Of a stretch of DNA of 34,580 nt, positions 4,371-6,018 are shown piece after piece. The position numbers were made by a program, and so were the translations under genes. The stretch is taken from the NCBI GenBank assembly GCA_038727515.1, contig JAVYVS010000007.1, forward strand, positions 1 through 34,580, given 5' to 3'. Source of the DNA: Candidatus Methanomethylicia archaeon. Its GTDB lineage: Archaea > Thermoproteota > Methanomethylicia > Culexarchaeales > Culexarchaeaceae. Position 1 is the stretch's first letter. The number at the start of each line of letters is the position of its first letter. The notes beneath the pieces are model-generated. The model was not told the DNA's origin, ran no database searches, and saw only the letters and a list, made by a program, of their open reading frames with translations.

Positions 4371-6018
4371 TTGAAATATATTTTCATTACTGGCGGTGTT
4401 TTATCTAGCGTGGGGAAAGGAGGATTATCCTCCCCCTAAAGGTGTTGTAGCTGCATCCATTGGTAAGATACTTCAAGTTAGAGGATACTCCCCAACGATC
4501 ATAAAGATAGATCCATATTTGAATGTTGATGCTGGAACTATGAATCCATATATGCATGGTGAGGTTTTCGTTACTGATGATGGTGGTGAAACAGATTTAG
4601 ATTTAGGTCATTATGAGCGTTTTCTAGATATAAAATTGAGTAAAGAGAATAATATTACTACAGGTCAAGTTTATAGTTCTGTAATTAATGGTGAAAGACG
4701 TGGGGATTATCTTGGTGTATGTGTTCAAGTAGTTCCACATATAACTGACGAAATTAAACGTAGAATTAGACTTGTGGGTAGTAGGAGTGGTATTGATGTA
4801 GTTATTGTTGAGGTGGGTGGAACTGTAGGTGATATTGAGGGATTACCATTCCTTGAGGCTATTAGGCAAATGAGATTGGAGGATGGTTATGATAATACAT
4901 TATTTGTTCATGTAGCTTTAGTTCCAATTCTAGATGTTACTGGTGAACAAAAGACTAAACCTTGCCAACATAGTGTAAATGAGCTTAGGAGGATTGGTAT
5001 ACAGCCAGATATAATTGTTGCTAGATGTAGTAGTCCCTTAAATGAATCTGCTAAAAGGAAGATTGCATTGTTTGGTAATGTCCCTTACAATGCTGTTTTC
5101 ACATCATATACTGTTGACTGTATCTATGAAGTTCCATTAATACTTGATGAACAAGGTATGGGTGATTATATTGTGCATAGACTTAGACTTAATCCTAGAA
5201 AACCTGATTGGAGTTATTGGAGGAATATTGTAACTTCCTTCCGTAACTATAAGCATAATATCCGAATTGCCATGTGCGGTAAATATACTAGTTTAGTTGA
5301 CTCATACATTAGTATTAGTGAAGCTTTAAAACATGCTGGTGCAAGTATTGGTGTTTATGTGGATTTAAAATGGATTGAAACTGAACTTTTAGAGAAAGAT
5401 CCATCCATGATTAATTCATTGATTAATTATGATGGTATTATGGTTCTTCCAGGATTTGGTGCTAGGGGTACTGAAGGTAAGATAATGTCGATTAAATTTG
5501 CTAGAGAAAATAATATACCATTTCTAGGAATATGTTTTGGTTTTCAAATGGCTGTGGTGGAATTTTCTAGAAATGTCCTTGGTTTAAAGGATGCTAATAG
5601 TACTGAAATTGATCCAAAAACTCCTCATCCAGTTATAGATTTACTTCCAGAGCAGAGGGGTGTTGAAGTTAAAGGTGGAACAATGAGACTTGGCGCTAGT
5701 AATATAATCTTGAAAGAGGGCACCCTCGTACATTCACTTTATGGTCGTATTATTATTAGTGAGAGGCATAGGCATAGGTATGAAGTTAATCCAAAATATT
5801 GGGAGGCCCTAGAGAAAGCTGGTTTAATCTTCTCTGGGATAAGTGAAGATGGACGTAGAGTGGAATTTATTGAAATTAGTAATCATAGATTCTTTTTGGC
5901 TTCTCAAGCTCATCCAGAATTCAATTCCCGTCCCGGTAAACCTTCCCCTCCATATCTAGGTTTTGTTAAAGCTGCCTTCAATTATTCCATTGAAAGACTA
6001 AGTAAAGGTTCAGCTTAA
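4371..6018 (+). CDS. pyrG: CTP synthase, split by a 22-nt putative BHB intron (exons 4371-4417 and 4440-6018; 541 aa when joined)
   Basis: TTG 4371 reads [16 protein letters not shown] (canonical PyrG N-terminus) in one frame. The rest ([66 protein letters not shown]) is in the +1 frame. Removing 22 nt gives ...[13 protein letters not shown]... Confidence 0.96.
4418..4439 (+). other. Putative bulge-helix-bulge (BHB) mRNA intron in pyrG
   Basis: GGGG(4412-15)/CCCU(4434-37) 4-bp central helix; AAA bulges at 4416-18 and 4438-40; inner stem GGAGGA/UCCUCC with UUA loop. Cleavage after the 2nd nucleotide of each bulge excises AGGAGGAUUAUCCUCCCCCUAA and restores the frame. Confidence 0.85.

Follow-up and report, generated by a model that had tools for sequence, protein, structure and literature searches.

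Introns that the tRNA-splicing machinery takes out of protein-coding sequences are rare in archaea. One such element is reportedly found in the pre-mRNA of cbf5, which codes for a pseudouridine synthase, as a bulge-helix-bulge (BHB) intron of Desulfurococcales and Sulfolobales (said to have been described by Watanabe in 2002 and by Yoshinari in 2006). Splicing of cbf5 by the endonuclease EndA has been experimentally established in Crenarchaeota (Yokobori 2009, PMC2738675), and the archaeal splicing rule places cleavage between the second and third nucleotides of the bulge (PMC2738675). Relaxed motifs of the HBh′ and BHL types are documented substrates of (αβ)2 EndA enzymes with a Crenarchaea-specific loop (PMC3241643, PMC2738675), and mutagenesis has tied Lys44 of this loop to relaxed-motif cleavage (PMC3241643). 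In the literature searched, which extends to 2020–2026, cbf5 is named as the sole coding-region case, next to an intron in a 5′ untranslated region (5′ UTR) of Haloferax (PMC2738675, PMC7714728); pyrG and CTP synthase are not mentioned there, and the description of Culexarchaeia says nothing of introns. Here we analysed a 34,580-nucleotide (nt) stretch of DNA from a hot-spring Candidatus Methanomethylicia archaeon (GCA_038727515.1, contig JAVYVS010000007.1, positions 1 to 34,580 of the forward strand; referred to as the window in the rest of the text), in which pyrG, the gene coding for CTP synthase, is interrupted by 22 nt at positions 4418–4439. An earlier reading of the window (the original prediction) had proposed that this segment is a BHB-type mRNA intron and knew of no described pyrG intron; we found no publication describing one either. 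Our analysis makes it very likely that the segment is a tRNA-type intron of the BHB family, in the relaxed HBh′ form, spliced from the pyrG pre-mRNA by EndA and the ligase RtcB.

The gene pyrG starts with TTG at position 4371, and its initial frame (the exon-1 frame) meets a TAA stop codon at 4437–4439 after 22 codons, six of which, coding for GGLSSP, lie past codon 16. The other 525 codons follow in the +1 frame, as far as 6018 (listed open reading frame (ORF) 4396..6018). Pfam analyses found parts of the CTP_synth_N domain (PF06418) on either side of the break, positions 1–20 in the exon-1 ORF and positions 16–265 in exon 2, and also found the class-I glutamine amidotransferase domain (PF00117). 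Deletion of the 22 nt gives GTG GGG AA/A GGT GTT, which codes for V-G-K-G-V (the slash marks the junction), and yields a CTP synthase of 541 amino acids (aa) reading SSVGK/GVVAAS. An AAAGG direct repeat (4416–4420 and 4438–4442) spans the two borders, and any excision register within this repeat leads to the identical product. The spliced N-terminus matches the uninterrupted PyrG of related families residue for residue, and the protein unites the two features that identify a CTP synthase, the N-terminal GGxxSSxGKG motif in CTP_synth_N and the class-I glutamine amidotransferase domain. The interrupted codon is that of the ATP-binding (P-loop) lysine, Lys16. The ORF positions and the Pfam matches thus confirm the break after TTG 4371 and the +1 shift of the remainder, as claimed in the original prediction, and the restored V-G-K-G-V, GKG motif and 541-aa length hold as well. 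The fold that it had described (a GGGG/CCCU helix, two AAA triplets and a hairpin of 6 base pairs (bp)) was also recovered, and for the outer helix that it had called weak we saw no convincing one form. The elements of the interrupted gene are the following.

4371 to 4417, + strand: pyrG exon 1, with 15 full codons from TTG onward and AA, the opening 2 nt of the Lys16 codon.
4412 to 4415, + strand: 5′ strand of the central helix H, GGGG, exonic, with no variation among 10 genomes and CCCY as its partner in each.
4416 to 4418, + strand: 5′ bulge of 3 nt, AAA, with a predicted cut after 4417, based on the PMC2738675 rule and on the fact that all relatives thereby regain the AAA codon.
4418 to 4439, + strand: predicted 22-nt intron, the removal of which restores the frame and SSVGKG.
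4419 to 4433, + strand: inner helix h′, the 6-bp hairpin GGAGGA-UUA-UCCUCC, intronic, four pairs of which show compensatory double changes.
4434 to 4437, + strand: 3′ strand of helix H, CCCU, intronic, with three invariant G-C pairs and a last pair that is G-U in seven genomes or G-C in three.
4437 to 4439, + strand: TAA stop codon of the exon-1 frame, within the intron, as directly read.
4438 to 4440, + strand: bulge-like AAA on the 3′ side, with no closing outer helix and a predicted cut after 4439; AAA in four genomes, AGA in six.
4440 to 6018, + strand: pyrG exon 2, from the last base of Lys16 and GVVAAS to the stop codon, with CTP_synth_N positions 16–265 and the glutamine amidotransferase domain.

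In the mechanism that we propose, the exonic GGGG contributed by codons Val14–Gly15 would pair with the intronic CCCU to form the 4-bp central helix. On the 5′ strand this helix would be followed by the 3-nt bulge and then by the intron hairpin, on the 3′ strand by the unpaired AAA. A two-subunit (αβ)2 EndA would cleave each triplet behind its second base (after A4417 and A4439), and RtcB would ligate the exons, so that the ATP-site lysine regains its AAA codon and the message codes for the 541-aa CTP synthase. The predicted spliced junction reads ...GCGTGGGGAA/AGGTGTTG... (in its longer form ...AGCGTGGGGAA/AGGTGTTGTAG...). An unspliced pyrG mRNA would give only a 22-residue peptide.

The insert is conserved throughout the order to which the window belongs. 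Our species set for this order comprised 12 genomes; 10, from three families, carry pyrG, and the two others, only 45% and 57% complete, gave no pyrG match. All 10 pyrG-bearing genomes have an insert at the identical codon, with lengths of 21, 21, 21, 22, 24, 25, 26, 26, 27 and 28 nt, which often cannot be divided by three. Read in the exon-1 frame, every insert meets a stop codon, in most cases one within the hairpin loop, and is therefore untranslatable, and its removal leads to an intact PyrG of 536–541 aa in each of the 10 genomes. The layout is invariant at the borders (GUGGGG-AAA-GG...CC-CCCY-ARA-GG), and the hairpin arms vary by family with their complementarity kept (GGAGGA/UCCUCC, GGAGG/CCUCC, GGAAGC/GCUUCC, GGGAGCU/AGCUCCC and GGGAAC/GUUCCC). 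As in BHB introns, the central helix between the cleavage sites is exactly 4 bp long, with GGGG and CCCY paired in 10 of 10 genomes, and the AAA of the 5′ site forms a 3-nt bulge bounded by helix H and by the hairpin h′ in the same 10 genomes. In the alignment of the 10 sequences, each of the 103 cells that make up the 11 proposed pairs holds a standard pair (100%), and four hairpin pairs show compensatory double changes (12 cells), which from their distribution among families represent at least four separate events. When the 3′ partners were slid by one to three columns as a control, pairing fell to 49–77%. RNAalifold recovered the same helix-bulge-hairpin without any supplied structure. Such same-site inserts with compensatory changes were what an alignment of the relatives' pyrG 5′ ends had been expected to reveal if the intron were real. 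Both pyrG exons are under purifying selection: pairwise comparison of the spliced frames with those of relatives gave dN/dS values of 0.05–0.17, and the variable columns of exon 1 across the 10 genomes number 4, 1 and 12 at codon positions 1, 2 and 3, respectively (12 of 17 at the third position).

Variation at the 3′ border also bears on the cut register. The 3′ triplet is AAA in four of the 10 genomes and AGA in the other six. A cut after base 2 or base 3, which are indistinguishable here, would rebuild the lysine codon AAA in all 10 genomes and give a functional mature RNA, with SSVGKG in an ORF of 536–541 aa. A cut after base 0 or base 1 would place an arginine at the invariant P-loop lysine in six of them. 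The middle base of the 3′ triplet, which varies, belongs to the intron only with a cut behind base 2 or base 3, which matches the published rule.

Two further genes of the same genome contain inserts that share the order of the pyrG insert (helix H, bulge, hairpin, helix H, bulge), with A-N-A bulges.

Contig C2, 9293 to 9311, − strand: 19-nt insert in cbf5, CCCU-AGA-GCCU UAUU AGGC-GGGG-AAA; its removal restores GTLD/PKVSG, with the catalytic Asp codon.
Contig C2, 203838 to 203860, + strand: 23-nt insert in hypD, CGGC-ACA-CAGCC UUUUAA GGCUG-GCCG-AUA; its removal restores CGT/HEYT.

Another hypD copy, on the 6-kb contig C11 (2225–3268), is uninterrupted. We scanned the whole genome for the pattern of 4 nt, 3 nt, a hairpin, the 4-nt complement and 3 nt. 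Without filters, the scan returned 45,572 structural matches, with equal in-register and off-register counts and a predominance of fusions between neighbouring genes. When A-N-A bulges and a GC-rich helix were required, four in-register candidates that restore an ORF remained, compared to 0–1 in each of four off-register controls. Four relaxed filters gave no excess past about three candidates in this genome, and we consequently rejected the idea that it hides a large set of introns with the pyrG layout. We also set aside one extra 59-nt candidate that had passed the strict filter of A-N-A bulges, GC-rich helix and ORF (contig C1, 275510–275568, + strand, GGGA-ACA-...-UCCC-AUA, with 557 codons before and 32 after it); it has a weak AU-rich stem, lies near a C-terminus and is probably a false positive.

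Our survey of the class covered 62 species genomes, 60 of which carry pyrG. Within the class, the insert at the Lys16 site occurs only in the window's order (10 of 10 genomes). In all 10 genomes of the sister family (f7, loci L028 and L035–L042) it is absent, and two other inserts, of about 19–20 nt and about 32 nt, interrupt pyrG in the codons for Pro-Tyr within IDPY and MNPY. These inserts, laid out as ACCC-AUA-hairpin-GGGU-ARA and ACCC-AUA-hairpin-GGGU-AUA, have the same architecture, and the same cut rule applied to them gives DPYINVDAG at IDPY. They have in common a 5′ junction 10-mer, ACCCAUAGGC (ACCC-AUA-GGC), and a 3′ end, GCCGGGUA (GCC-GGGU-A), which suggests that one insert gave rise to the other by inserting into a matching exon sequence. 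The gene is uninterrupted in the other 40 genomes of the class. In a sample of 301 genomes of the phylum, no further pyrG interruption was seen among the matches listed, and the genomes with two PyrG matches were found to contain contig-end fragments, not introns. Of 80 diverse loci from other phyla, 78 show no break at GK/G. A search of genome contigs with the PyrG peptide gave best matches that were 50–63% identical and came from Bathyarchaeota and bacteria. Distant homologues with names (Methanomethylicaceae, Verstraetearchaeota and Nezhaarchaeales) are in line with the placement of the host at class level.

Together, the inserts of pyrG, cbf5, hypD and the pyrG of the sister family support the existence of a class of archaeal mRNA micro-introns, small but real, located in catalytic-motif codons. 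That protein-gene introns might be more widespread in this lineage than known, as the original prediction had supposed, is borne out only in part: the sister family has two other pyrG introns, but with this motif the genome of the window offers only pyrG, cbf5 and hypD. A broader reading is that pyrG is a preferred or ancient home of tRNA-type introns across archaeal phyla, and that they spread by site-specific insertion into exon sequence complementary to the 4-nt helix strand of the intron. It comes to mind because the Lys16 site is filled in a whole order and because the introns of the sister family share their junctions, resembling a duplication into a matching site, but we consider it unlikely.

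All five inserts interrupt codons of highly conserved motifs (the P-loop Lys, the catalytic Asp, CGxH, DPY and NPY), and in all five the exon strand of the 4-bp helix comes from these constrained codons. Both inserts of the sister family create UAG exactly at the 5′ junction. The stop codons found in inserts may act as a fail-safe against a poisoned subunit of the tetrameric enzyme made from unspliced mRNA, or may merely come with AU-rich loops.

Several observations weigh against an intron spliced by the tRNA machinery. Neither RNAalifold nor minimum free energy folding found the outer exon-exon helix of a strict hBHBh′ motif. Because RNAalifold shows no such helix, the insert fails membership in the strict BHB class and is kept in the relaxed one: its motif is of the relaxed HBh′/BHL-like form, with a single-stranded 3′ ARA triplet, and is not a strict BHB. 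With an invariant U4411–A4438 pair added, the central helix might instead have 5 bp, which would move the 3′ site. The folding energy of the single sequence is unremarkable, and with z only about −1.2 in both 66-nt and 33-nt folding windows we dropped it as evidence. The covariation score was reached in 0 of 500 column shuffles, a count that is not a probability and that overstates significance because the compared sequences are kin, not independent. Three of the four candidates of the filtered genome scan are pyrG, cbf5 and hypD, from which the filter was learned, and their passing it is therefore circular; the off-register control of that scan is not circular. Among the public proteins of relatives with identities of at least 75%, none has a continuous N-terminus, and there was no sign of a PyrG that is cDNA-derived or intron-less. 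Finally, cleavage, ligation and the exact cut sites are what we infer from the sequence. Of the proposal of a BHB-type intron cut by the tRNA machinery, the conservation of the site, the covariation, the selection and the presence of EndA and RtcB argue for the intron and its processing, while the strict BHB has given way to the relaxed form.

As to its host, the genome codes for an endonuclease fit for relaxed motifs and for the RtcB ligase. Two genes contain an EndA domain. The product of the first, of 188 aa, is closest to the catalytic subunit of Aeropyrum pernix (3P1Z_B, E = 3e-48) and also matches the catalytic α subunits of Sulfolobus tokodaii and Pyrobaculum aerophilum (E = 3e-48 to 2e-34 over all three species). 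It keeps the catalytic Tyr, His and Lys and aligns without gaps through the Crenarchaea-specific loop, where its K44-P45-K46 corresponds to K44-P45-R46 of A. pernix. The second, of 174 aa, is without the catalytic His and resembles structural subunits. About 12 tRNA genes of the genome carry introns, some at non-canonical positions, from which we conclude that the splicing machinery is active. The explanation that best survives beside EndA/RtcB splicing, quite improbable as it is, has the insert removed from the RNA by another endonuclease and ligase, or has a cut that merely separates two RNAs. It draws on the 3′ site, which lies outside a closed bulge and thereby departs from a strict EndA substrate, and on the fact that we infer the acting enzyme. 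Relaxed motifs are, however, known substrates of the (αβ)2 EndA, whose Crenarchaea-specific loop is kept in the α subunit of this genome, and the intron-bearing tRNA genes also speak against another enzyme. Moreover, at 22 nt the insert is far below the sizes of self-splicing introns, and an Rfam search of the window returned no match.

Translational recoding of an uncut mRNA is less probable still, and we give it very little credence. In this scenario the ribosome would hop over the hairpin from AAA 4416–4418 to AAA 4438–4440, in the manner of T4 gene 60, or would shift frame. The sequence of this genome by itself fits such a hop, with matched AAA take-off and landing codons, a hairpin right after take-off, a stop codon in the gap and a +1 frame that is open through the insert. 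The relatives do not: the codons match in only four of the 10 genomes, the other six having AAA and AGA, and the pairing of take-off with landing codon expected for bypassing is thus lost. Nor would a single frameshift rescue the 21-nt inserts of three relatives, which are in frame and contain TAA, and reading through in the +1 frame would add seven residues inside the P-loop. The covariation instead keeps the pairing between exonic GGGG and intronic CCCY together with the 3-nt bulges, which is the geometry of EndA substrates, as in the cbf5 of the same genome.

We also considered that pyrG is a decaying pseudogene or has been split by a small inert insertion, with CTP obtained by another route. 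The frame is indeed broken in the DNA, the public gene calls of the lineage are all truncated, and the AAAGG repeat of 5 nt that flanks the insert looks like a target-site duplication. This repeat is imperfect (AAAGG/AGAGG) in six of the 10 genomes, though, and the interruption persists in three families with no other lesion over 536–541 codons. Decay is further contradicted by the dN/dS values, by the third-position pattern in exon 1 and by the lack of a second pyrG, and we regard this explanation as highly improbable. An intact second copy together with decay of this one had been named earlier as grounds for giving up the intron; we looked for both and found one pyrG only in this 1.59-Mb, 93.6%-complete draft genome. 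An assembly or sequencing artefact, a concern raised at the outset and one that the 12-contig state of the draft might feed, is excluded for all practical purposes, since the insert recurs in 10 species genomes, each assembled separately, and in 12 independent metagenome contigs from several projects, including a 95-kb contig with the identical 22 nt.

The interruption of pyrG has consequences for annotation. Among public proteins, every gene call for the PyrG of the window's order (P0001–P0009) is wrong at the N-terminus, either starting at an internal Met (510–515 aa) or reading through the insert in the wrong, +1 frame. Because these N-termini are truncated or misread, annotation pipelines and metabolic reconstructions mis-score an essential gene, the P-loop of which is lost. 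Two of these proteins, P0002 and P0008, imply two further hairpin variants.

Upstream of the pyrG start codon, we noted two putative expression signals.

4322 to 4329, + strand: TATA-like box TTTATATA, some 40 nt ahead of the TTG, as read, with a presumed function based on the archaeal TATA consensus.
4359 to 4366, + strand: Shine-Dalgarno-like motif GGGGGTGA, 4 nt before TTG, with a presumed function.

The pyrG genes of relatives have a similar GGGGGTGA or GGTGGT ahead of their TTG or GTG starts. A bacterial promoter and terminator scan of the window was set aside as irrelevant, the host being an archaeon. The gene upstream of pyrG (3493–4290, + strand) is a 265-aa ORF with an SGGLDSS motif that appears NAD synthetase-like, as read by eye only. 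On the opposite strand, a 94-aa winged-helix/ArsR-like ORF (6010–6294, − strand) overlaps the pyrG stop codon by 9 nt, and a small ORF of this type is also found downstream of pyrG in several relatives.

If pyrG is spliced as we propose, the core metabolism of a whole order depends on EndA and RtcB through a single essential gene, that of CTP synthase. The pyrG intron would also widen the coding-region cases past Sulfolobales and Desulfurococcales, and it would offer a clean substrate for studying how mRNA is recognized by a broad-specificity EndA.

The pyrG intron can be compared with four known systems. Like the splicing of eukaryotic HAC1 and XBP1 by IRE1 and RtcB, its removal would be a non-spliceosomal, protein-catalysed excision of a short, frame-changing mRNA intron; the ligase of the metazoan system is RtcB as well (PMC13149111). 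HAC1/XBP1 splicing differs in its endonuclease, IRE1, and in the stem-loop motif that is recognized, and is known as a stress-regulated switch. The BHB intron of HVO_1309 from Haloferax volcanii (PMC7714728) is likewise an mRNA intron and was confirmed as an EndA substrate by sequencing of circular RNAs and by in vitro cleavage. Unlike the pyrG intron, it is 46 nt long, lies in an untranslated leader, the 5′ UTR, leaves the reading frame independent of splicing and belongs to a host with a homodimeric EndA. Non-canonical introns of pre-tRNAs with HBh′ or BHL motifs (PMC3241643, PMC12397907) are alike in their 4-bp helix, 3-nt bulge, inner hairpin and unpaired 3′ site, and also in the type of EndA, with the Crenarchaea-specific loop, in which K44-P-K46 is kept here. 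The pyrG insert is moreover within the 11–175 nt size range of tRNA introns (PMC2738675). It is unlike them in residing in an mRNA without a tRNA body, where protein-coding constraint on the Val-Gly-Lys codons fixes the helix strand on the exon side. Of the four systems, the cbf5 pre-mRNA intron comes closest. The two differ in that pyrG codes for a core enzyme of nucleotide biosynthesis and cbf5 for an RNA-modification enzyme, in that the host order of the pyrG intron belongs to a Methanomethylicia-type class and not to Sulfolobales or Desulfurococcales, and in that the cbf5 intron is backed by cDNA and in vitro cleavage whereas that of pyrG has been read from DNA. They agree in the following: each is a short insert within the codon of a conserved motif, often with a relaxed motif, consistent with a cut between bases 2 and 3 of the bulge, present in a lineage-specific manner and found in hosts with a hetero-oligomeric EndA.

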